This document shows positions 1 through 15,153 of a DNA stretch of 35,053 bases, one piece after another (position 1 is the stretch's first letter; each line of letters opens with the position of its first letter). Made by a program: the position numbers and the translations under genes. Under the pieces are notes generated by a model. The model was not told where the DNA came from and did no database searches. It saw only the letters and a program-made list of their open reading frames with translations. The DNA is from Anaerolineae bacterium (GTDB lineage: Bacteria > Chloroflexota > Anaerolineae > JACIWR01): NCBI GenBank assembly GCA_014360845.1, contig JACIWR010000004.1:1-35053 (forward strand). The letters run 5' to 3'.

Positions 1-3000
1 AGAGGGTTTGCTCGAGCTCTTTAATGAAATATCTCCTATCGAGAGCTTCAACGGGGTGCTCTCGCTGCACTTCCCGGCGTACCATGACCCGGTCAGCAGA
101 CAACTGGGGTTGACTTATCGCTTTGAGGAGCCCAAGTATGGGGCGCTGGAGTGTCTGGACCGCGACATGACCTATGCCGCTCCTCTGTACGTTGAAGTGG
201 ACCTGCACAACCGGGAGACCGATGAGCACATCCGCTCGGAGATATTCCTGGGAGATTTCCCGTTGATGACGGAGAATGGCACCTTCATCATCAACGGGAC
301 AGAGCGGGTGGTGGTCAGTCAGCTCATCCGCTCTCCTGGCGTCTACTTCGACGCTGAAGAGGATCGCACCACGGGACGTCTGCTCAGCCAGGCCAAGCTG
401 ATCCCAGACCGGGGCGCCTGGATGGAGTTCGAGACCCGTAAGAGCGATTATCTCACCCTGAAGTTCAACCGCAAACGCACTATCCCGGTCACCATCCTGC
501 TGCGGGCTCTTGCCGCGGTGGATGACGGGTTGGACAGCGATGTGCTGACCGAGGGCAGCGATGAGGAGTTGCTCGCCCTTTTCGCCGAGTCCGATACTCA
601 TCCTGACCATCAGTACATTGTGGGGACAATGCGCCAGGAGCCCGAATGGGAGCTCAAAGGGGATCGCACCATAGCTGAAGAGGCCCTGCTGGAGTTCTAC
701 AAGCGCATGCGACCCGGTGATCCGCCCACCCTGGACAACGCCAGAGATTACCTGGTCTCCCAGATTTTTGACCAACACCGTTACGACCTGGGGCGGGTTG
801 GCCGTTACAAACTCAATCGTCGTCTGGGACTGGATATACCCTCTCAACACCGAACCCTGACCAAGATGGACCTGGTCAAAGTGGTGGAGAGGATGATCCG
901 GGTGAATAACGGTCTGGAGGACCCGGATGACATTGACCACCTGGGCAACCGGCGGGTGAAGACGGTGGGGGAGCTCATTCAGAACAAGCTGCGCATCGGA
1001 TTGCGGCGCATGGAGCGCGTGGTGCGCGAGAGAATGAGCATTCGCGACACTGAGGAGATAACCCCCATTTCGTTGATCAACATTCGACCGGTTGTGGCTG
1101 CCGTGCGCGAATTCTTCGGCTCCAGCCAGTTGTCCCAGTTTATGGATCAGACCAACCCCCTGACTGAGCTTACCCACAAGCGCACTCTCAGCGCGTTGGG
1201 ACCGGGTGGTCTGCGCCGCGAGCGGGCCGGTTTTGATGTGCGAGACGTGCACCACTCCCACTACGGGCGCATCTGCCCCATCGAGACCCCTGAGGGTCCC
1301 AACATCGGGTTGATCGGGCGTTTGGCCAGCTATGCGCGGGTGAATGAATACGGTTTCATCGAAACGCCTTATCGCAAGGTGATACGCACGGTGCCCAACG
1401 AGGCCGATAAGTTGGTCGGGCACATCCTTCGCGAGCAGATTGTGGACCCGGAAAGCGGTGAGGTGGTGGCCGAGGCGGGTACCGAGGTGACTCCCGAACT
1501 GGCCGAGCGAATTGCTGCCTTGCCCTCGGTGGACGAGGTCAAGGTTCGTCCCATGGTGACCAATGAGATAGTTTATCTGACGGCGGACACGGAAGACCAG
1601 TTCACCATTGCCCAGGCCAACGCCAAGCTCGACGACAAGGGTCATTTCATTGACGATCGTATTTCCGTGCGGCGCAGCCAGCGCTTCCTGTTCGAAGCGC
1701 CGGAGAAAATTGATTACATGGACGTTTCCCCCAAGCAGGTGGTGGGAATATCCGCTTCGCTGATCCCGTTCCTGGAGCATGATGACGCGAACCGCGCCCT
1801 GATGGGTTCTAACATGCAGCGTCAGGCAGTGCCACTTCTCACTCCGGAGGAGCCTATCGTGGTCACGGGCATGGAGCCCAGCGCAGCGCTGGCCTCGGGA
1901 CAGGTGGTCATCGCTCAGGAGGACGGGGAGGTGGTGAGTGTCACTGGCGAGCGCATAATTGTCGCTGGCGAGAATGGGTTGCGCACCTACAAGTTGCGCA
2001 GGTTCAATCGCTCTAACCAGTCTACCTGCATTGATCAGCACCCCATCGTCAGTAAGGGGCAAAAGGTCAAAAAAGGTGACGTGTTGGCGGATTCCTCGTC
2101 CACCGACCACGGGGTGCTGGCCCTGGGGCAGAATGTGCTGGTGGCCTTCATGTCGTGGGAGGGCAACAACTACGAGGATGCCATCATCATCAGCGAAAGC
2201 CTGGTGCGAGAGGACAAGTTCACCTCCATCCACATAGAGAAGCACGAGGTGAAGGCGCGCGAGACCAAGCTCGGTCCGGAGGAAATCACTCGCGATATTC
2301 CCAACGTCGGTGAAGAGGCGCTGAAAGACCTGGACGAAAACGGCATCGTGCGCATTGGGGCCGAGGTGGGACCCAGCGACATCCTGGTCGGCAAAATCAC
2401 GCCCAAAGGCGAGAAAGAGCTGACCCCGGAGGAGAAGTTGCTGCGGGCCATTTTCGGTGAAAAAGCTCGCGAGGTTAAGGACTCCTCCCTGCGCATGCCC
2501 CATGGTGAGCGGGGCAAGGTGGTAGATGTAAGGATCTTCGACCGCGAGGAGCACCGGGATTTGCAAACGGGGGTCAATCAACTGGTGCGGGTGAGTGTGG
2601 CCCAGCAACGCAAGATCACCGAAGGGGATAAGATGGCCGGGCGCCACGGGAACAAAGGCGTCATCTCCAAGGTGGTACCTATCGAGGATATGCCGTTCTT
2701 GCCCGATGGCACGCCGGTAGAGATCATTCTGAACCCCTTGGGTGTGCCGGGCCGCATGAACATCGGTCAGATTTTGGAGACGCACCTGGGTTGGGCTGCC
2801 GACAGGTTGGGCTTCCGGGCGGTGAGCCCCGTCTTCGATGGTGCTGATGAGCAGGAAATCGAGGCCGAATTGGCCCGGGCGTGGATGATTGATGAGGCCT
2901 GGGCGGAGATAACCTCTCGCGCCTGGGAGTGGATCAAGCAACAGGGCATGGATACCGACTACTTTGATGATGATGACGATGCGCGTCTGTATTACATTGC

Positions 3001-3820
3001 GCACTGGTTTGATGAACTCGGCTGTGACTATGACGAGGAGCAGTTGGCCTATGATCGGGTCTATGCCCGGCGTGCGGTGTTACGAGAGTGGTTGAAGGAG
3101 CTGGGATACGATCCCGATAGCATTCTGATTTTTGAAGACGATCACCGCAGCGTCGCTGAGCGAGAGGCGAGCGATGCTCTGGCCATAGACGTTTGTCTGC
3201 GGCTGTGGTTGACCAAGCACGGGGAAGAAGTATCACCGGAACTGTCGGGTGAGGAGCTGCGAACCTACGCCGAGGAGGTGAGCCGGCGGATCGGGTGGCC
3301 TGTGCCCACTACTGGCAAGATAGTGCTGTACGATGGCAAGACCGGTGAGCCTTTTGACCAGCCGGTGACAGTGGGTGTGATCCACATGATGAAGTTGGCG
3401 CACCTGGTGGAGGACAAGGTGCACGCTCGCTCTACCGGGCCGTACTCCCTGGTCACTCAGCAGCCGCTGGGTGGTAAGGCTCAGTTCGGTGGTCAGCGTT
3501 TTGGAGAGATGGAGGTTTGGGCCCTGGAGGCTTATGGCGCGGCCTATACCTTGCAGGAGATGCTGACCGTCAAATCTGATGATGTGACGGGCCGCGTGAA
3601 GACCTATGAGGCTATAGTCAAGGGTGAAGAAGTGACGGAACCTGGCTTGCCAGCCTCGTTCCGCGTGCTGGTCAAAGAGTTGCAAAGCCTGGGGTTGGCT
3701 GTGGAGGCTTTGGGCGACAATGGCGAGATCATCGAGTTTGGCAAGGATGAGGAGAAGGAGAAGCTTCCACAGCTAGGCTCTGGTCTGGGATTGCTGGGCT
3801 TCGAAGGGGATACGGAATAG
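1..3820 (+). CDS. rpoB: DNA-directed RNA polymerase beta subunit (5'-truncated at window edge)
   Basis: Motifs [63 protein letters not shown]; frame open to the window start. Confidence 0.99.
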
Positions 3821-3852: not shown

Positions 3853-3901
3853 CTTCCTTCGTTGCCTAGCAGGTAAGCCTTTTAGAGCGCGTTAGGTTTG
3901 C

Positions 3902-3937
3902 ATGAGGCCATCGCGGCTCTTCTCACGATGGCCTCAT
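3902..3937 (+). promoter_or_regulatory. Perfect 12-bp stem-loop in the rpsL 5' leader
   Basis: ATGAGGCCATCG (3902-3913) / CGATGGCCTCAT (3926-3937). Confidence 0.5.
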
Positions 3938-3990
3938 TCAGTGAACAGTGGAAGTTCGAGCGATTTACTAGTTTCAGGGGAGGAAGGAAT

Positions 3991-4422
<432 letters not shown>

Positions 4423-5049: not shown

Positions 5050-7125
<2,076 letters not shown>

Positions 7126-7275
7126 TTACTTCGCTTCTTTCGCCCCCTGTGGGGCGTGAGAGATAAAAACAGGGAAAAAGGAGATTTTGAGGTGGTAGCC
7201 CGCTCCCCGCCGTGGTCTACGAGGGGAGAAGGGGCCTCTCCAGAAATTCGGTAATTGAGGGAAAGGAGAATTTAA

Positions 7276-8502
7276 ATGGCTAAGCAAAAGTTTGAGCGAA
7301 CAAAGCCTCATGTGAACGTGGGAACCATCGGACACATTGACCACGGCAAGACAACCTTGACAGCCGCCATCACCAAGGTATTGGCCTTGAAGGGCTTGGC
7401 ATCGTACAAGAGCTACGATGAGGTGGCCAAAGCGGACGCCAAGACCTTCCGTCGTGATGCGACGAAAATCTTGACGGTGGCCATTTCCCACGTGGAGTAC
7501 GAGACGGAGAAACGTCACTACGCTCACGTGGACTGCCCCGGACACCGCGACTACATCAAGAACATGATCACCGGTGCAGCCCAGATGGATGGGGCTATCC
7601 TGGTGGTGGATGCCTCTGAGGGGCCTATGCCTCAGACGCGCGAGCACGTGCTGCTGGCCCGCCAGGTGGAAGTGCCGAGCATGGTCATATTCTTGAACAA
7701 ATGCGACCTGATGGAGGATGAGGACTCCGAGGAGTTGCTGGAGCTGGTGGAACTGGAGCTGCGAGAGTTGCTGGACGAGTACGAGTTCCCCGGCGATGAG
7801 GTCCCGGTGGTGCGGGGTAGCGCGCTGCGGGCTCTCCAGAGCGACAGCACCGATCCGGATGCTCCCGAGTATCAGTGTATCTGGGAGCTGATGCACGCCA
7901 TAGACGATTACATCCCGACGCCGGTGCGTGAGGAGGATAAGCCCTTCCTGATGCCTATCGAGGACGTGTTCAGCATCAAGGGGCGTGGCACGGTGGTCAC
8001 CGGGCGAATCGAGCGCGGCACCATCAAGGTGGGCGACGAGGTGGAGATCGTCGGTCTGCGTGACCAGATCAAGAAGACGGTGTGCACCGGGGTGGAGATG
8101 TTCCACAAGACCCTGGATAAGGGCATTGCCGGCGACAATGTGGGCTGCCTGCTGCGCGGCATTGATCGCGACGAGGTGGAGCGCGGTATGGTGCTGGCCA
8201 AGCCGGGTAGCATCAAGCCTCACACCAAGTTCATGAGTGAGGTCTACGTCCTGCGCAAGGATGAAGGTGGTCGGCACAAGCCCTTCTTCCCCGGCTATCG
8301 TCCTCAGTTCTACATCCGCACCATGGACGTGACGGGCGAGATCACTTTGCCCGAGGGCGTGGAAATGGTCATGCCTGGGGACAACGTGAACTTGCAGGTG
8401 GAGTTGATTGTGCCGGTGGCCCTGGAGGTAGGGTCGCGCTTCGCTATTCGTGAGGGTGGTCTGACCGTTGGCGCGGGTGTGATCACCAAGATACTGGAAT
8501 AG
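7276..8502 (+). CDS. tuf: Elongation factor Tu
   Basis: [42 protein letters not shown]. Confidence 0.99.
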
Positions 8503-8583
8503 TACAACGTACCTGGCGGGGCAGGGTGCGTCACTTTGTGCCGTACCTTGCCCCGAAGTGTGATGTGGGATGAGAGAGGGGCT

Positions 8584-8892
8584 ATGGCCAAGCAGAAGAT
8601 CAGGATTCGACTGAAAGCTTACGATCATCGGGTTCTAGACCAGTCAGCGCGACGCATCGTGGAGACGGCGGAGCGCACGGGAGCACAGGTGGTGGGACCG
8701 GTTCCCTTGCCCACCAAGATCGAGCGCTTTACCGTGCAGCGCTCCCCTTTCGTGGACAAGGACTCCCAGGAACATTTCGAGATTCGCACTCATAAGCGAC
8801 TCATTGATGTCATTGATCCTGGGTCCAAGACCATTGATTCGCTGATGCGTCTTAATCTGCCGGCTGGGGTGGATATCGAAATCAAAATGTAA
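8584..8892 (+). CDS. rpsJ: 30S ribosomal protein S10
   Basis: [33 protein letters not shown]; ATG after GAGAGGG. Confidence 0.98.
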
Positions 8893-8965
8893 GCCCTGGT
8901 GAGGCCCCTGATCTGGTTTCTGCGACGGTCTCTCGCAAGAACTTGTCGGGGACTCAGAAGGAGAG

Positions 8966-9003
8966 GGAACTCGAAGGAACTCGAGGGCTCTTGGGGGAAC
9001 TCG
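8966..9003 (+). repeat. Three GGAACTCG copies in 10-nt phase in the rpsJ-rplC spacer
   Basis: GGAACTCG at 8966, 8976 and 8996. Confidence 0.7.
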
Positions 9004-9018
9004 CCTGTGGGAGGGAAG

Positions 9019-9651
9019 ATGAAGGGTATTTTAGGCAAGAAAGTGGGCATGACGCAGATCTTTGACGAGAGTGGAGAGGTTATCCCGGTAACGGTCATCG
9101 AGGCTGGGCCCTGCTTTGTGGTGCAGAAGCGGACGGTGGAACGGGATGGCTATAGCGCGATCCAGTTGGGTTTCGAGGAGGTGAAGCCCAAGCGTCTCAC
9201 CAAAGGTCAGCTCGGCCATCTGCGTAAGAGAAATTTACCCCCTCTGCGCTACCTGCGCGAAGTTCGTGTCTCCGATCCAGAGGAGTACGAAGAGGGACAG
9301 AAGATTACGGTTGGCATATTCGATGTGGGCGAACGGGTGGATGTGGTAGGCACTTCCAAGGGGCGCGGTTTCGCGGGTACTATCAAGCGTCACGGGTTCA
9401 AACGCCAACCCAAGACCCACGGCCAGTCCGACCGCGAGCGTGCGCCGGGTTCCATTGGTTCTACGACCACGCCGGGGCGCGTGTTCAAAGGGAAGCGCAT
9501 GGCCGGACACATGGGGAACGCACGGGTCACGGCGCAGAACTTGCAGGTGGTGCTGGTGGATCCGGAGCGCAATCTGTTGGCCGTTAAGGGGACGGTGCCG
9601 GGAGCACGCAACGGGTTGCTGATTATCAAAGAGGCGAGGAAGCAAGGGTAA
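9019..9651 (+). CDS. rplC: 50S ribosomal protein L3
   Basis: MKGILGKKVGMTQIF, SKGRGFAG, PGRVFKGKRMAGHMG; ATG after GGAGGG. Confidence 0.98.
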   Translation: MKGILGKKVGMTQIFDESGEVIPVTVIEAGPCFVVQKRTVERDGYSAIQLGFEEVKPKRLTKGQLGHLRKRNLPPLRYLREVRVSDPEEYEEGQKITVGIFDVGERVDVVGTSKGRGFAGTIKRHGFKRQPKTHGQSDRERAPGSIGSTTTPGRVFKGKRMAGHMGNARVTAQNLQVVLVDPERNLLAVKGTVPGARNGLLIIKEARKQG

Positions 9652-9674
9652 TCCTCGCTAACTGTGAGGAGGTA

Positions 9675-9701
9675 ATGCGCACAGCACATTTTATCCCGTG
9701 A
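9675..9701 (+). other. 8-codon mini-ORF (MRTAHFIP*) with strong SD, in frame with the downstream protease
   Basis: GAGGAGGT then ATG 9675; TGA 9699-9701 directly followed by in-frame ATG 9702; translation not demonstrated. Confidence 0.4.
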
Positions 9702-9731
9702 ATGTGCGTGACTCTCGAAGAAGGGTTTGAG

Positions 9732-12503
9732 ATGTGCGGGAATACCAGGCAGTTGCTCAAGGTCGGGGTGTTGACCTGCGCGGTGATGGCTTTGCTCGCG
9801 TTGGCGTGGAACAACTCATGGGCTGAGCCACAGAGCCGGTGTGAACTTTCGCCGCTGTTTCAGTCGCCGCTGCCTACGCCTACCGCTCCTGCCCTCTCTA
9901 ACGCGCAGATGGCGATACAACACGTCTCGCGCACCAGGAATATATCGGCCGATCAACTATCGGTTGCTGATGAATCAACGATCGAATTCCCATTGACCGG
10001 GAAAGTGCTCCATCGGGAGCTGGTACTGGATACGAAGGGCAAAGGCCAGTTGATTTACGAGGTGATGATCGAGGGGCAGACTGGAGCGATAGCCAAGGGA
10101 AACAAACTGGATGAATTGCTGGTAGAGGAAGCCCAGGCATATCGAGCCAGGTACGAGCGTCTGGTTCTGGAATTGGCGGCTCACGGGAAGAAAACAGCCA
10201 TCGAGAATTTGCAAGTTGTCAACGACATGGTGGTCCATTATCCTTTGACCGACCGAATGTGCTGGTGGGTGAGAGTGCTGGACAGCAAAAGCCTGCTGAC
10301 CCAGGACGTGACCATTGATCTGTACGGCAAACGAGTGGACGTGAAAGCACTGGAGAAGGCGGAGTTCGAGGCACGGCGGGCCAAGTATGGCAGGTTGGAA
10401 CCAGAGTTGTACTATCTCTTGCAAACCAGGAAAGATAAAGACCTGGTGAAAGTGCTGCTGTGGGTCAAGGGGGTGGACTACGCAGGGGTAGATGCACAGT
10501 TGGTACAGAAGTACCCGCAACTTAAGGGCTTCAGGGTAATAGGCGGGCGCGTCTGCGACGAGAGAGGCGCGCCGGCGAAACTGGACAGGGAACTATCGAG
10601 GAAAGTGTTAGCCGATTACAACGATTTGTTGGACAAGGCTCATCTGGCAGCGGCACAACCCATCATTGATCTCCTGCGGGCCAGGGGCTACGAAGCCAAA
10701 GCGCTTGAGTTTATCCCCGCTGTGGTGGCCGAATTGTCCAGGAAGGCTGTGCTCGAGCTGAACGAGGCCCCGTTGGAGAACCTGGGCGCTATCTACTGGG
10801 GTGAGATGGAAATTCACCCTCAACTGGACTCGGCTGCACCGACGGTGCGTGCTACCACTGTCTGGGGACGCGGGTACACGGGCGAAGGTGTTACTATAGC
10901 CGTCGCCGAAGGCGGTGTGATTAATCCCGGCATTACCCACGGTGCTTTGCAAGGAAAGATCATAGCCGTAAATACGGCCGAGGCCACGGATTGGCACGCG
11001 GCGGCTGTGGCTGGCGTGTTGGCTGGTGACCATCCAGACTATCCACAATATCGGGGTATTGCATACGGCAGTGATTCGCTCGTCAGCGCCAGGGTAACCG
11101 GAGGCACAATAGACTATCTGGCAGATGGTCTGGAATGGGCCGTAGATCAGGGGGCATACGCCATCAATTGCAGCTTCACCACCGAAGGTAGTCGTTACAT
11201 GCAGCCGGAGGACAGAGCTCTCGACTATGTGGCCCGCTATCGTTACCCGACGATAGTGGTGGGCGCGGGCAACGATGTGGCCCAGGTCTGGCATGTTTCC
11301 AGTCCAGCCAAGGGCTACAACATTCTCACGGTGGGCGGGTTCGATGATCATAACGACTCTTCCTGGTCAGATGATGTTATGTGGGATGATTCGTGCTATG
11401 TGGATCCCTACATTGATGGCACGAGCGGATCAGGCGACAGAGAGAAGCCCGATGTGGTTGCTGTGGGAGCAAGTGTGACAACGGCCTATACTCCTTGGGG
11501 CGATGATGGGTTTCGTGCTCTAAGCGGTACCAGCCTCGCCGCTCCCCAGGTGACCGGCCTGGTCGCTCTGATTATGGACAGAAAGCCTGATTTAGGTATC
11601 TGGCCAGAGACTATCCGGGCCATCGTCATGGCTTCGGCCATCAACAATATCGAGGGTGATAGCAAACTGAGCGATCAAGATGGTGCCGGGGGCATAGACA
11701 TCTCCCTGGCCGATACGATCACGGCCAATTGGCAATGGGCCACCAGGAACATCGTGTACCCTGATGATTACGAGGATGATTGGTTGAAGGAAACCTTTAC
11801 CTTTTCTGCGACTGCTGGAGATAGAGTGCGAGTCGTTATTTGCTGGGATTCCAATCCCTCGTCCGATTTTCAGACTGAGGGCTCTGATGGCTTAGATACC
11901 GATTTGATTTTATATGTCCTGGATCCCGAACTTGTTGGGTACTCTGCCAGTCTGCACAACAGTTTCGAGATAGCGGAGTTTACCGCAACCAAGACCGGAC
12001 AATACACAATCCGTATACTCAGGGATCCAGCTACGTCTACCGAGACCTCTAACTACCTCGGCGTAGCCTGGGCCAAGGTCGCTTATAATGCCAGCTATCC
12101 CAGCCAAAGCACCCCTGGTGCCATGCTTACCGGCAGTACGAACAACTACGTAGACGTCACCGTCAAAAACACCGGCAGTCTGTACTGGCCGAGTGGGGGT
12201 GGCAATCCTGTGCGCCTGGGTTATCACTGGTATGACCAGAACTATAACCCCGTCAGTGGGTGGGCGGATTACAGGACCTATCTGCCCTACAGCATGGGTT
12301 ACGGACAGGAGGCCGGGTTGCACGCCCGCGTTGGCGCGCCATCCGGTGTGCCCGATGGGATTTACATCCTGCAATGGGATGTGGTGCGCGAGGGGATTAC
12401 TTGGTTCGCCGACCAGGGCGTGGAGACGCTGGACGTGCCCGTGCTGGTCGCCGATGAAATTCACAGCGTTTACTTACCCGTTGTGATGAAGAACTATCAG
12501 TAA
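9732..12503 (+). CDS. Secreted S8 (subtilisin-like) serine peptidase with long N-terminal pro-region, PPC-like and NBR1-Ig-like C-terminal domains (alternative start 9702)
   Basis: Signal-like N-terminus (LLKVGVLTCAVMALLALAW); GYTGEGVTIAVAEGG, WHAAAVAGV, GAGND, SPAKGYNILTVGG, KPDVVAVG, SGTSLAAPQVTG; VKNTG..W..VRLGYHW..LQWDVVREGITWF Ig-like module; ends VYLPVVMKN. Confidence 0.9.
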   Translation: MCGNTRQLLKVGVLTCAVMALLALAWNNSWAEPQSRCELSPLFQSPLPTPTAPALSNAQMAIQHVSRTRNISADQLSVADESTIEFPLTGKVLHRELVLDTKGKGQLIYEVMIEGQTGAIAKGNKLDELLVEEAQAYRARYERLVLELAAHGKKTAIENLQVVNDMVVHYPLTDRMCWWVRVLDSKSLLTQDVTIDLYGKRVDVKALEKAEFEARRAKYGRLEPELYYLLQTRKDKDLVKVLLWVKGVDYAGVDAQLVQKYPQLKGFRVIGGRVCDERGAPAKLDRELSRKVLADYNDLLDKAHLAAAQPIIDLLRARGYEAKALEFIPAVVAELSRKAVLELNEAPLENLGAIYWGEMEIHPQLDSAAPTVRATTVWGRGYTGEGVTIAVAEGGVINPGITHGALQGKIIAVNTAEATDWHAAAVAGVLAGDHPDYPQYRGIAYGSDSLVSARVTGGTIDYLADGLEWAVDQGAYAINCSFTTEGSRYMQPEDRALDYVARYRYPTIVVGAGNDVAQVWHVSSPAKGYNILTVGGFDDHNDSSWSDDVMWDDSCYVDPYIDGTSGSGDREKPDVVAVGASVTTAYTPWGDDGFRALSGTSLAAPQVTGLVALIMDRKPDLGIWPETIRAIVMASAINNIEGDSKLSDQDGAGGIDISLADTITANWQWATRNIVYPDDYEDDWLKETFTFSATAGDRVRVVICWDSNPSSDFQTEGSDGLDTDLILYVLDPELVGYSASLHNSFEIAEFTATKTGQYTIRILRDPATSTETSNYLGVAWAKVAYNASYPSQSTPGAMLTGSTNNYVDVTVKNTGSLYWPSGGGNPVRLGYHWYDQNYNPVSGWADYRTYLPYSMGYGQEAGLHARVGAPSGVPDGIYILQWDVVREGITWFADQGVETLDVPVLVADEIHSVYLPVVMKNYQ

Positions 12504-12515
12504 CCAGAGGTGATA

Positions 12516-13139
12516 ATGTTGCGAGTGACAGTTTACAACGCAGATGGTGAAGCAGTTGGCGAAGCCGAACTGCGCGAGGATATCTTCGGCATCGAGCCCA
12601 ACGTGGCAGTGATGCACCAGGCGCTGGTGCGGCAGTTGGCCAATGCCCGGCTGGGCACGCACAAGACCAAGTCGCGGGGCGAGGTGAGCGGCACCACGCG
12701 CAAGGTGTGGCGACAGAAGGGCACCGGTCGCGCGCGCCACAGCTCACGCAAGGTGAACTTGTGGCGAGGCGGTGGTGTCGCGCACGGACCGCGACCGCGC
12801 AGTTACCGGCAGAAGATGCCGCGCAAGATGCGGCGCCTGGCCCTGCGCTCCGCTCTCTCGGTGAAGGCCGCCGACGGGCAGATCGTCTGCCTGGACGAGT
12901 TGGAGTTGGGCGTGCCCAAAACACGAGAGATGATCAAGGTCTTGGAGAGGCTGGGCCTGGATGCCAGTGTGCTCATCCTGCTGCCGGAGCGCAACGAGAA
13001 CGTGGAGAAATCGGTGCGCAATATCCCAGACGTTTCCACTCTGCGGGCCAGCTATCTGAACGTCCGTGATCTCTTGAACTACGACTACCTCCTGATGCCC
13101 TTGGGGGCTTTGCGGGAGATTGAGCGCATTCTGGGATGA
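12516..13139 (+). CDS. rplD: 50S ribosomal protein L4
   Basis: GTHKTKSRGEVSG, RQKGTGRARH, GGGVAHGPRPR; ATG after GAGGTG. Confidence 0.98.
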   Translation: MLRVTVYNADGEAVGEAELREDIFGIEPNVAVMHQALVRQLANARLGTHKTKSRGEVSGTTRKVWRQKGTGRARHSSRKVNLWRGGGVAHGPRPRSYRQKMPRKMRRLALRSALSVKAADGQIVCLDELELGVPKTREMIKVLERLGLDASVLILLPERNENVEKSVRNIPDVSTLRASYLNVRDLLNYDYLLMPLGALREIERILG

Positions 13140-13155
13140 GGTGGGAGGACGAGCG

Positions 13156-13446
13156 ATGAATCCTTATGAGATTATCAAACGGCCGATTCTCACAGAGAAG
13201 AGCAGCTTTCAGGCGGATTATCTCGATCAGTACACCTTCGAGGTAGATCGCCGGGCCAACAAGCATCAGGTGAAGAAGGCCGTGGAAGAGATATTCGATG
13301 TGGACGTGGTTTCGGTCAACATCGTAAACGTCCCGGCGAAGATGGGGCGCTATGGCCGCCGGCGGGTGGTGCGCGTCCCGGCCTGGAAAAAGGCGATTGT
13401 CACCCTGGCGCCGGGGCAGAAGATCGAGATTTTTGAGGGTGTGTAA
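13156..13446 (+). CDS. rplW: 50S ribosomal protein L23
   Basis: IIKRPILTEKS, ANKHQVKKAVE, WKKAIVTL. Confidence 0.97.
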   Translation: MNPYEIIKRPILTEKSSFQADYLDQYTFEVDRRANKHQVKKAVEEIFDVDVVSVNIVNVPAKMGRYGRRRVVRVPAWKKAIVTLAPGQKIEIFEGV

Positions 13447-13581
13447 ATCTGAAAGTGGCAGGCGGCTAAGCCGCAAGCGTGGTGCGGGGATGGAATGCTC
13501 AGTATCGTCTGCCACGCCGGTGTCGGCTATCCCGGCTGGGGATAGGTGGGCGCCGGAAGCTTGCGAGATGAGGGAGTAGAG

Positions 13582-14415
13582 ATGGCAATCAAAGTGTACA
13601 AACCCACGTCGCCGGGGCGACGGGGCATGACAGCTTCCACATTCGAGGAGATAACGCGGACCGAGCCCGAGCGCTCTTTGCTGGCTCCGCTGCACAAGAA
13701 GGCCGGGCGCAATGTGCGGGGCAAGATCACCGTCCGCCATCGCGGCGGGGGACATAAGCGTCGTTACCGTCTCATTGACTTCAAACGGGATAAGGTGGGC
13801 GTGCCGGCCCGTGTGGCTTCGATTGAATACGATCCCAATCGTTCGGCGCGCATTGCCCTGCTGGTCTACGCCGATGGCGAAAAGCGTTACATCATCGCCC
13901 CTCTGGGCTTGATGGTGGGCGATACGGTGATGAGCGGGCCTGAGGCCGAGGTGCGTGTGGGTAACGCCCTGCCCATCGCCAATATCCCCACGGGTACGCT
14001 GATCCACAACATCGAGTTGCAGCCGGGTAAAGGCGGGCAATTGGTGCGGGCGGCCGGCACTTCCGCGCAGTTGATGGCCAAGGAGGGGAAGTACGCCCAT
14101 GTGCGTCTGCCCAGCGGCGAGGTGCGGCTCATTCATCAGTCGTGTATGGCCACCATTGGTCAGGTGGGCAACACCGATCACGGCAACATCAAGTTGGGTA
14201 AGGCAGGTCGCAAGCGGCATCTGGGTTGGCGACCGGCAGTGCGCGGCTCGGCCATGACCCCGCGCGATCACCCGCATGGTGGTGGAGAAGGGCGTGCACC
14301 TATTGGCATGCCCTCGCCCAAGTCGCCGTGGGGTAAGCCTACGTTGGGCAAGAAGACGCGGCGTAACAAATCCACCGATAAGTGGATAGTCCGCCGCCGG
14401 GGTAAGAAGCGATAG
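13582..14415 (+). CDS. rplB: 50S ribosomal protein L2
   Basis: [31 protein letters not shown]. Confidence 0.99.
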
Positions 14416-14478
14416 CGGCCAGGCCCTATGGTGGTTGGGCCATTAGGCAAATCGGGATTGGATACAGGAGGGTAGACG

Positions 14479-14766
14479 GTGTCGCGTTCACTGAAAAAGG
14501 GACCTTACGTAGATCCCAAGCTGTTGAAGAGAATTGAAGAGATGAACAAGCGCGGCGAGAAGCGAGTGATCAAGACTTGGTCCAGGGCATCCACGATTTT
14601 CCCGCAGATGGTGGGCCATACCATAGCCGTGCACGATGGCCGACGACATGTGCCCATCTACATCACTGAGAACATGGTGGGGCATCGGCTGGGTGAGTTC
14701 GCTCCGACGCGAACCTATCGTGGGCACGTGGTCAAAGAGAAGAAGACTCGCGCTCGACGGGCTTGA
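14479..14766 (+). CDS. rpsS: 30S ribosomal protein S19
   Basis: [25 protein letters not shown]. Confidence 0.99.
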
Positions 14767-14805
14767 TGAGTGGCGTGATAAGTCTGACGATAGTGGAGTG
14801 GGAAA

Positions 14806-15153
14806 ATGGCGTTTGAAGCAAGAGCAGTAGCTCGGTATGTGCGGATGTCTCCTCAGAAGGTGCGCCTTGTCGCCGATCGTGTGCGTGGTATGCGGGCGGT
14901 GGATGCTCTGACGGCCCTGCGATTCATGCCGCAGGCGGCGGCGCGTCCGATGTACAAAGTTATCAGGTCGGCCATTGCCAATGCCGAAGAGAACATCGGG
15001 CTGGACCCGGAGGATCTGTACATTGCGGAGTTGAAGGTTGATGGAGGGCCGATGATGAAGCGCTGGCGCGCTGGCGCTCGCGGTCGCTATAAGCCCATTC
15101 TCAAGCGGTCCTCCCATATCACCGTGGTATTGAGTGAGGAAGTGGAAGAGTAA
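14806..15153 (+). CDS. rplV: 50S ribosomal protein L22
   Basis: [28 protein letters not shown]. Confidence 0.98.

Follow-up and report, generated by a model that had tools for sequence, protein, structure and literature searches.

The order of genes in the S10 operon is among the most conserved in bacteria. How, then, did a gene for a secreted protease come to lie inside it, between rplC (ribosomal protein L3) and rplD (ribosomal protein L4), and is that gene expressed together with the ribosomal protein genes on either side? The question is raised by a stretch of 35,053 nucleotides, referred to here as the window, which is one whole contig (JACIWR010000004.1; C334) of the genome of an uncultured Anaerolineae bacterium from an oil reservoir. 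The metagenome-assembled genome (MAG; G000) comprises 4.36 Mb in 578 contigs and is 89.9% complete, with 2.77% contamination. I will argue, at a probability of about 0.7, that the gene is what remains of an ancestral passenger cassette, vertically inherited, which has lost its partner gene, is most probably co-transcribed with the operon, and probably encodes an exported subtilase (peptidase family S8) with a Glu-His-Ser active site.

According to this proposal, a two-part cassette, made up of at least one gene for a PrcB-like lipoprotein followed by the gene for an S8 subtilase, entered the rplC-rplD spacer in an ancestor of the genus and has been handed down vertically since then as a passenger of the S10 operon. 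In the lineage of the window, the lipoprotein genes were later deleted, leaving about 50 nucleotides, and purifying selection has kept the protease intact. Two sister species have deleted the cassette as a whole and retain only a stretch with the ribosome-binding region of rplD.

Authenticity and Rarity of the Insertion

An initial annotation of the window, made from the sequence alone, had described an S8 peptidase of about 920 amino acids, bearing a signal peptide, encoded in the same direction as rplC and rplD and ending 12 nucleotides before the ATG of the latter. These coordinates are correct to the base. The open reading frame (ORF) runs from 9702 to 12503 on the plus strand (933 amino acids), and the 11 aligned homologues begin at its Met11 (ATG at 9732), which gives a protein of 923 amino acids. 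The match to the Pfam family Peptidase_S8 (PF00082; E-value 1.2e-29, 104 bits against a cut-off of 21.8) extends over positions 3 to 288 of the 288 in the profile, and a signal peptide is evident by eye.

The initial annotation named a chimeric assembly as what would undo its reading, a concern to which a MAG of 578 contigs with 2.77% contamination gives some footing. Both junctions, however, are bridged by Logan contigs from sequencing run X3, made on another sample of the study to which the probable source belongs. One of 231 nucleotides spans positions 9544–9774, across the rplC-protease junction, and another of 181 nucleotides spans 12374–12554, across the protease-rplD junction, each with 0 differences and with more than 31 nucleotides on both sides of its junction. 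Run X4, from another study, has two identical 182-nucleotide pieces of the protease. The two junction sequences each occur once in the assembly, and the 3' junction recurs in diverged contigs of other metagenomes: L043 (4.5 kb) and L044 (8.6 kb) both carry a protease 87% identical to that of the window, then a similar short spacer, then rplD (86% identical), and L044 continues past rplD into rplW and rplB. With relics of the gene present besides in two sister genomes (see below), a mis-joined assembly is scarcely credible as the explanation.

That rplC and rplD are normally adjacent, the premise of the initial annotation, was amply borne out. The genes for L3 and L4 are adjacent in 29 of 29 loci from other relatives, about one per family of the class. 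A wider survey of the gap considered 201 genomes of the class, using the 126 with both L3 and L4 among the matches listed and leaving out the other 75. Within this set the two genes always lie on the same contig and strand, with a median of 37 nucleotides between the matched stretches and no more than 100 nucleotides in 114 cases. The gap exceeds 500 nucleotides only in the window genome, where it is 2867, and the next-largest are 423 (G027) and 266 (G193).

The 423-nucleotide gap of G027 (locus L018) holds a co-directional ORF of 75 amino acids (MGKEIKIWYDSECDYIEVIFE..., positions 1015–1242 on the minus strand of the locus), which I take to resemble the small proteins of the DUF2283/YuzE type. 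The slot would then have taken in a second passenger, unrelated to the first. Many contigs in MAGs of the class start 1.1–1.7 kb upstream of rplD, at or just after tuf, and the probable reason is that duplicated tuf genes break assemblies.

History of the Insertion

Two sister species, G001 and G002, with L3 and L4 that are 89–91% identical to those of the window (rplC 90% in both), have no protease in the S10 operon. Their rplC-rplD spacers, 113 nucleotides in G001 and 139 in G002, are nonetheless unusually long for the class, and they end in ...TGTGATGAAGAATTATCAGTAACCAGAGGTGATAA and ...GATGAAGCACTATCAGTACCAGAGGTGATAA, respectively, which correspond to the final codons of the protease (V-M-K-N-Y-Q-stop) and then the leader of rplD. 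The relic in G001 is identical at 33 of its 34 nucleotides (local alignment score 63, as compared to a maximum of 27 from 200 shuffles), and that in G002 covers 31 columns (score 50, shuffle maximum 28–36, again from 200 shuffles). The part derived from the protease amounts to 18–22 nucleotides. Because the tail YLP(L/V)VM(K/R)N recurs in the protease family in unrelated contexts, it is the gene that gave rise to the relics. Beyond the protease tail, local alignment gave no convincing relic of a PrcB-like gene in the two spacers; one candidate, CCTCACTACGT, bore a resemblance by eye only and was dropped.

A maximum likelihood tree based on rplD-rplW-rplB (2.1 kb, three outgroups) has the form window,(G002,(L044,G001)), with support of 85% and 100%. 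The carriers of the protease, the window and L044, do not form a clade, which implies at least two losses. Since the gap between rplC and rplD is about 30–45 nucleotides in the closest outgroup families (e.g., G086 and G026), the insertion maps to the stem of the genus. The simplest history consists of one insertion before the genus diversified and two or more later deletions.

Between the window and L044, the ratio of nonsynonymous to synonymous divergence (dN/dS) is 0.18 for the protease (dS 0.35) and 0.16 for rplD (dS 0.54), the two values of dS being similar in magnitude, as they should be if both genes have descended vertically together. Judged against six outgroups, the branch leading to the window is not accelerated (10–25 changes unique to the window versus 25–41 for L044), and the catalytic domain, with 0.098 differences per site, is among the least-changed parts of the protein. 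The low dN/dS, the lack of acceleration and the conserved catalytic domain argue that the protease is kept by selection even without its usual partner.

A different history, recent horizontal acquisition by the window genome alone, was what the initial annotation had in mind when it counted 27 and 26 G or C per 60 nucleotides in two segments of the protease core and 42 per 60 in rplD. The hand counts reproduce exactly and the deficit is real: the GC content of the protease is 0.556, at the 3rd percentile among 732 long ORFs (12th percentile for GC3, the content at third codon positions), and the genome as a whole has 0.602. It is also mild. Composition says little here, because several ribosomal protein genes in the window (rpsG, rpsJ, rplW and rpsS) are equally low. 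The same reading could draw on the lack of any paralogue of the protease's N-terminal region elsewhere in G000. On the other side, the same gene occupies an identical position in a lineage that has just 80% identity to the window in the DNA of its ribosomal genes, relics persist in two sister species, dS is of comparable size for the protease and for rplD, and the family of the protease is found mostly in MAGs of Anaerolineae and other Chloroflexota. Nor is there a vehicle in sight. The initial annotation found no transposase or integrase, and the protease is indeed the only ORF between rplC and rplD; the search for flanking direct or inverted repeats yielded only short imperfect matches, none to explain a mechanism of insertion; and G000 has one copy each of the two junctions and of the N-terminal region, so that the insert has the marks of neither a mobile element nor a genomic island. 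Recent acquisition is very improbable, and the cassette was in place already in the ancestor of the genus.

The PrcB-Like Partner

What the cassette looked like when whole may be judged from L044, where the protease is preceded by two ORFs of lipoprotein type with PrcB_C domains (Pfam E-values 2.7e-11 and 5.6e-11) and, at the very start of the contig, by the 3' end of a further PrcB-like copy. One of the tandem PrcB-like genes is apparently split by a stop codon or frameshift (119–424 and 428–613). A direct repeat of about 190 nucleotides (1–190 versus 1107–1300 in L044, and likewise in L043) covers the end of a lipoprotein gene and the first 25 or so codons of the protease, with a C8 homopolymer at the start of the contig. 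The repeat probably caused the contig to break there and may mediate deletions.

The 50 nucleotides that follow rplC in the window align with the last 50 or so nucleotides of a PrcB_C gene of 176 amino acids in L044, which ends in ...EEVMRTAHFIP*. At the level of protein the match is 74% over 23 amino acids (tblastn, E-value 1e-5). From this match to the end of a lipoprotein gene I infer that the lineage of the window deleted its PrcB-like genes and kept the protease.

The association of the two genes is common in the family. Of the 59 family loci with at least 900 nucleotides of upstream sequence, 38 have a PrcB-like gene immediately before the protease and in the same orientation, among them all 11 loci with an identity of at least 41%. 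Each of the two sister species has a different module elsewhere, of PrcB-like plus S8 type (G001 in contig C67, locus L005; G002 in contig C324, locus L002), 39–44% identical in the whole-genome search and 35–39% by tblastn on the fetched loci. The PrcB-like gene is seen upstream in L005, and in L002 the contig ends too near the protease match to show one. In the window genome, neither a second module of this kind nor a PrcB_C gene was found. This complementary distribution might explain the losses in the sisters.

The Protease and its Family

The protease matches 62 subtilase sequences of the Protein Data Bank (PDB) at E-values of 0.001 or better, and alignment with them shows a departure from the classical Asp-His-Ser triad. 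At the position of the catalytic Asp is Glu403 (codon 10908–10910), AVAEGGV being aligned on IIDTGV. The other elements, His432 (10995–10997), the oxyanion Asn524 (11271–11273) and Ser611 (11532–11534), are all present, with all codons verified, and the protease is therefore a homologous member of S8 with a variant triad.

Is the Glu a lesion? The active sites of 82 family loci, taken from tblastn alignments in which distant rows may be misaligned, read E-H-N-S in 59 and D-H-N-S in 12, with the remaining 11 divided among D-H-A-S (4), E-V-N-S (3), D-A-N-S (2), D-H-gap-S (1) and D-T-N-S (1). Glu403 is not a lesion, since Glu is the norm of the family along with the conserved His, Asn and Ser. 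The family (loci L043–L157) may represent an undescribed subfamily of Glu-His-Ser subtilases; no description of such a subtilase, or of a D32E variant, was found in the limited collection of literature searched.

Loci of the family were gathered from metagenomes and from genomes, the latter by an alignment-based scan of genome contigs. Most of the 35 that come from the genome collection belong, by record title, to MAGs of Anaerolineae or other Chloroflexota. By this count the family is native to the group, and its distribution does not suggest a foreign donor. Ribosomal neighbors are found among the family loci only in L043 and L044, and the distant locus L144 has a match to EF-Tu.

The N-terminus, MCGNTRQLLKVGVLTCAVMALLALAWNNSWA followed by EP after the predicted cleavage site, shows a small-x-small site in addition to basic residues and a hydrophobic core, as read by eye rather than by a predictor, and hydrophobic N-termini align in all 12 members of the family. 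The product is laid out as a pre-pro-enzyme that would probably be exported by the Sec pathway and mature outside the cell into a Glu-His-Ser subtilase degrading proteins or peptides. The pro-region of about 340 residues is modeled by AlphaFold2 with a predicted local distance difference test (pLDDT) of 85.4 and a predicted template modeling score (pTM) of 0.76. Its best fold match, a weak one, is the propeptide-bearing Tk-SP (3afg; E-value 0.011, probability 1.00), with none at 0.001 or better, and no Pfam family is found in the N-terminal 340 residues of any of the 12 members at an E-value up to 1. From the order of secondary structures in the model, I read the first two modules of the pro-region as PepSY-like.

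The C-terminal domain recurs, at 36–47% identity, in further proteins both of G000 and of its relatives, and the matching proteins carry PF16158. The protein closes with the motif (V/T)YLP(L/V/I)(V/I)(M/L)(K/R)(N/G), which in longer relatives is found between domains (RVYLPLVLRGD, ATYLPDVRGNY; homologues P0006–P0016). From its appearance the motif may be a signal for sorting or processing, characteristic of secreted proteins of Chloroflexota.

Transcription with the S10 Operon

The case for co-transcription is made by the spacing of the genes. The gap between rplC and the protease is 80 nucleotides and that between the protease and rplD exactly 12, as compared to 25–126 for other pairs in the operon. 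Twelve nucleotides hold only a Shine-Dalgarno sequence and leave room for neither a terminator of the protease nor a promoter of rplD, so that transcription has to pass through at least the end of the protease gene to reach rplD and the genes downstream. On the other side of the gene, no terminator-like element follows rplC, for which reason a single rpsJ-rplC-protease-rplD message is the economical reading. This arrangement strongly suggests that the gene is co-transcribed with the S10 operon, and the protease would most probably be carried on the rpsJ-rplC-...-rplD message.

The initial annotation had seen no obvious promoter or U-tailed terminator at either junction, and consensus scans of positions 7000–15000 agree with it. 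They find three promoter-like sites, about what is expected from shuffled sequences (3.4), with none at a junction, and four terminator-like sites, all on the minus strand. Rfam has no matches in the window at the gathering threshold.

Transcription is not the only level at which the gene might be controlled. The region 9630–9760, which includes the leader of the protease, folds at −46.6 kcal/mol (z-score −3.45) and has a 7-base-pair hairpin across the stop codon of rplC. Because of this structured leader and a weak ribosome-binding site, the protease may be translated much less than its neighbors are.

Objections and Alternatives

Several considerations weigh against the account given here. 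The promoter and terminator scans are crude and not tuned to Chloroflexota, a promoter inside the 3' part of the protease is possible, and the structured 80-nucleotide leader could attenuate or insulate expression. RNA run X10 matches only diverged relatives without the insert, the match of its contig ending at the stop codon of rplC; taken together, runs X4, X7 and X10 leave both junctions and most of the protease uncovered. Run X3, coming from the same study as the probable source, is not fully independent of it. Since L043 and L044 both begin inside the 190-nucleotide repeat, they do not show the rplC side of the locus in their lineage. The partner is missing from the window, the assembly of G000 (89.9% complete) gave no match to PF14343, and in Treponema denticola the PrtP protein is undetectable without PrcB, according to the part of PMC8167434 drawn on here. 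Finally, the catalytic Asp is a Glu, and the activity of an S8 peptidase with such a triad is a prediction.

Some of these points could be combined into an insulated protease: transcription of the S10 operon would stop or be attenuated in the leader, the protease would have a regulated promoter of its own, and rplD would be served by a promoter inside the 3' end of the protease. The fold of 9630–9760, far better than that of shuffled sequences, and its hairpin across the rplC stop speak for such an arrangement. The leader, however, has no hairpin with a U-run after it, and the scan gave no terminator-like site on the plus strand. Its sole promoter-like site on that strand within the gene (10216–10244) is far from rplD, the 3' junction shows no special folding (z-score 0.11), and with a gap of 12 nucleotides rplD in any case needs transcription to run through some part of the protease gene at the least. 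I judge insulation unlikely.

Others might mark the gene as a decaying or noncatalytic remnant, heading for deletion as in the sister species. Its partner has been cut to a relic of about 50 nucleotides, with PF14343 not found in the assembly, the cassette has been lost at least twice in the genus, and the dependence of PrtP on PrcB in T. denticola (PMC8167434, in the part just cited) would leave it without support. A remnant would not be expected to have an intact frame of 923 codons, a dN/dS of 0.18 on a branch that is not accelerated, and a catalytic domain among its best-conserved parts; and Glu is no sign of decay, being the usual residue in the family (59 of 82 loci, all of which retain His, Asn and Ser). 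This possibility seems to me quite unlikely, and I return to a passenger that is retained by selection and most probably transcribed with its hosts.

Gene Content of the Window

Pfam matches place the genes of the window in the following order on the plus strand: rpoB, rpsL, rpsG, fusA, tuf, rpsJ and rplC, then the Peptidase_S8/PPC protein, then rplD, rplW, rplB, rpsS, rplV, rpsC, rplP, rpsQ, rplN, rplX, rplE, rpsH, rplF, rplR, rpsE, rplO, secY, adk, map and rpoA. This is the canonical order of the S10 operon on one strand (rpmC lay outside the search), with the protease as the sole interruption and the spc and alpha genes following it. The long ORF of rplC opens at 8899, and homologues align by tblastn from the ATG at 9019 (MKGILGK), at about residue 41 of that ORF. 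The gene for rpoB (2–3820) is directly followed by rpsL (3898–4422), with no rpoC between them; rpoC is encoded elsewhere, or the rpoBC pair is split, in the lineage of the window. Features of the locus are listed in Table 1. The extension upstream of the protease start is probably leader rather than coding sequence, because all 11 aligned homologues begin at the next Met.

Table 1. Features of the rplC-rplD interval and flanking genes, in coordinates of the window.
Feature	Coordinates	Strand	Evidence and remarks
rpsJ (S10), first gene of the S10 operon	8536–8892	+	Pfam Ribosomal_S10, 6.6e-39
rplC (L3)	9019–9651	+	Pfam Ribosomal_L3; stop codon 9649–9651
Relic, 3' end of deleted PrcB-like lipoprotein gene	9652–9701	+	Alignment with L044; mini-frame from ATG at 9676 to TGA ending at 9701, MRTAHFIP*
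In-frame upstream extension MCVTLEEGFE (probable leader)	9702–9731	+	Conserved in L044; abuts stop of relic
S8 (subtilase) pre-pro-peptidase gene, 923 codons	9732–12503	+	Pfam, starts of homologues, dN/dS; stop codon 12501–12503
Sec-type signal peptide, 31 residues (...NSWA/EP; predicted)	9732–9824	+	Read from sequence
N-terminal pro-region	9825–10856	+	AlphaFold2 model; two modules of helix plus three strands, then a subtilase-propeptide-like module
S8 catalytic domain	10887–11690	+	Pfam, residues 396–663; PDB alignments
PPC (pre-peptidase C-terminal, beta-jelly-roll) domain	11793–12017	+	Pfam PF04151, 5.5e-7, residues 698–772; aligns with C-domain of Tk-SP
C-terminal domain of about 130 amino acids	12057–12470	+	Common to many other secreted proteins of the class
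Conserved tail YLPVVMKNYQ*	12471–12503	+	Last 18–22 nucleotides survive as relics in sister species
12-nucleotide spacer with rplD Shine-Dalgarno sequence (GAGGTGA)	12504–12515	+	Near-identical in window, L044, G001 and G002
rplD (L4)	12516–13139	+	Pfam Ribosomal_L4; ORF opens at 12510, ATG at 12516

Relation to Known Systems

Passengers among the genes for transcription and translation are known, and the part of Brandis (2021, PMC8046335) used here describes secY-adk-map in the spc operon, nrdHEF inside the rpoBC operon of Lactobacillaceae, and tusDCB and bfd-bfr between operons. The insert in the window resembles these in that unrelated genes, running in the same direction as their hosts in the transcription-translation supercluster, are variably kept or lost and lack obvious scars of mobile elements. 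It differs from what is described there, mostly insertions between operons, in lying inside the S10 operon proper and in encoding a secreted hydrolase rather than a cytoplasmic housekeeping protein. The limited collection of literature searched contained no description of a secreted protease in the S10 operon.

The pairing of a gene for a PrcB_C lipoprotein with a subtilase gene directly after it (L044, and the 38 of 59 loci) recalls the dentilisin locus, prcB-prcA-prtP, of T. denticola, as presented in the part of PMC8167434 consulted. The likeness has limits. The protease of the window matches the PrtP equivalog NF033595 weakly, at 22.3 bits against a cut-off of 300. No PrcA was seen, L044 having no extra large lipoprotein gene between its PrcB-like gene and protease, and the window itself lacks a PrcB gene except for the relic. 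The host, moreover, is an environmental member of Anaerolineae and not a spirochete.

Among solved structures, the relative with the best coverage is Tk-SP of Thermococcus kodakarensis (3afg and 9ues; residues 374–774 of the query, E-values 5e-12 and 3.6e-12), with 8jmw scoring slightly better (2.5e-13) in two partial stretches. Tk-SP shares the layout of an N-terminal propeptide, S8 domain and C-terminal beta-jelly-roll domain. In contrast to it, the protein of the window carries Glu where Tk-SP has the catalytic Asp, a further domain at its C-terminus, and a pro-region of far greater length (about 340 residues).

Significance

The initial annotation offered two thoughts on why the gene should be where it is, a scavenging exoenzyme wired to control by growth rate, or cargo sheltering in an essential operon. 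Of these, sheltering stays a fair description and may be given a concrete form: both natural deletions kept 30–34 nucleotides upstream of the rplD start, which fits selection on rplD translation limiting the excisions that are viable. The two thoughts may be joined in a bolder proposal, that throughout the history of the genus a Glu-His-Ser subtilase has been carried on the message for L3 and L4, with scavenging thereby placed under the growth-rate and stringent control of the S10 operon and the gene protected by its position. I think this rather unlikely as a whole. If true, it would constitute a feed-forward link from the supply of amino acids to the synthesis of ribosomes in a peptide-fermenting bacterium of the subsurface, and position in the operon would shield the gene, in that only those deletions sparing the ribosome-binding region of rplD survive.

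Since passengers in the transcription-translation supercluster are already known, what is most interesting here is a gain, decay and loss that can be traced, along with a PrcB-associated family of subtilases with a variant triad. The case documents an ancestral gain, long retention under selection, loss of a partner, and two independent clean excisions that spared the next ribosome-binding site, and in this way it shows how conserved operons tolerate cargo and later shed it. If co-transcription is true, the gene would be a natural instance of an exoenzyme expressed under the control of ribosomal proteins. The case also brings out a sizeable family of PrcB-associated subtilases, mostly from Anaerolineae, in which the usual active site is Glu-His-Ser.

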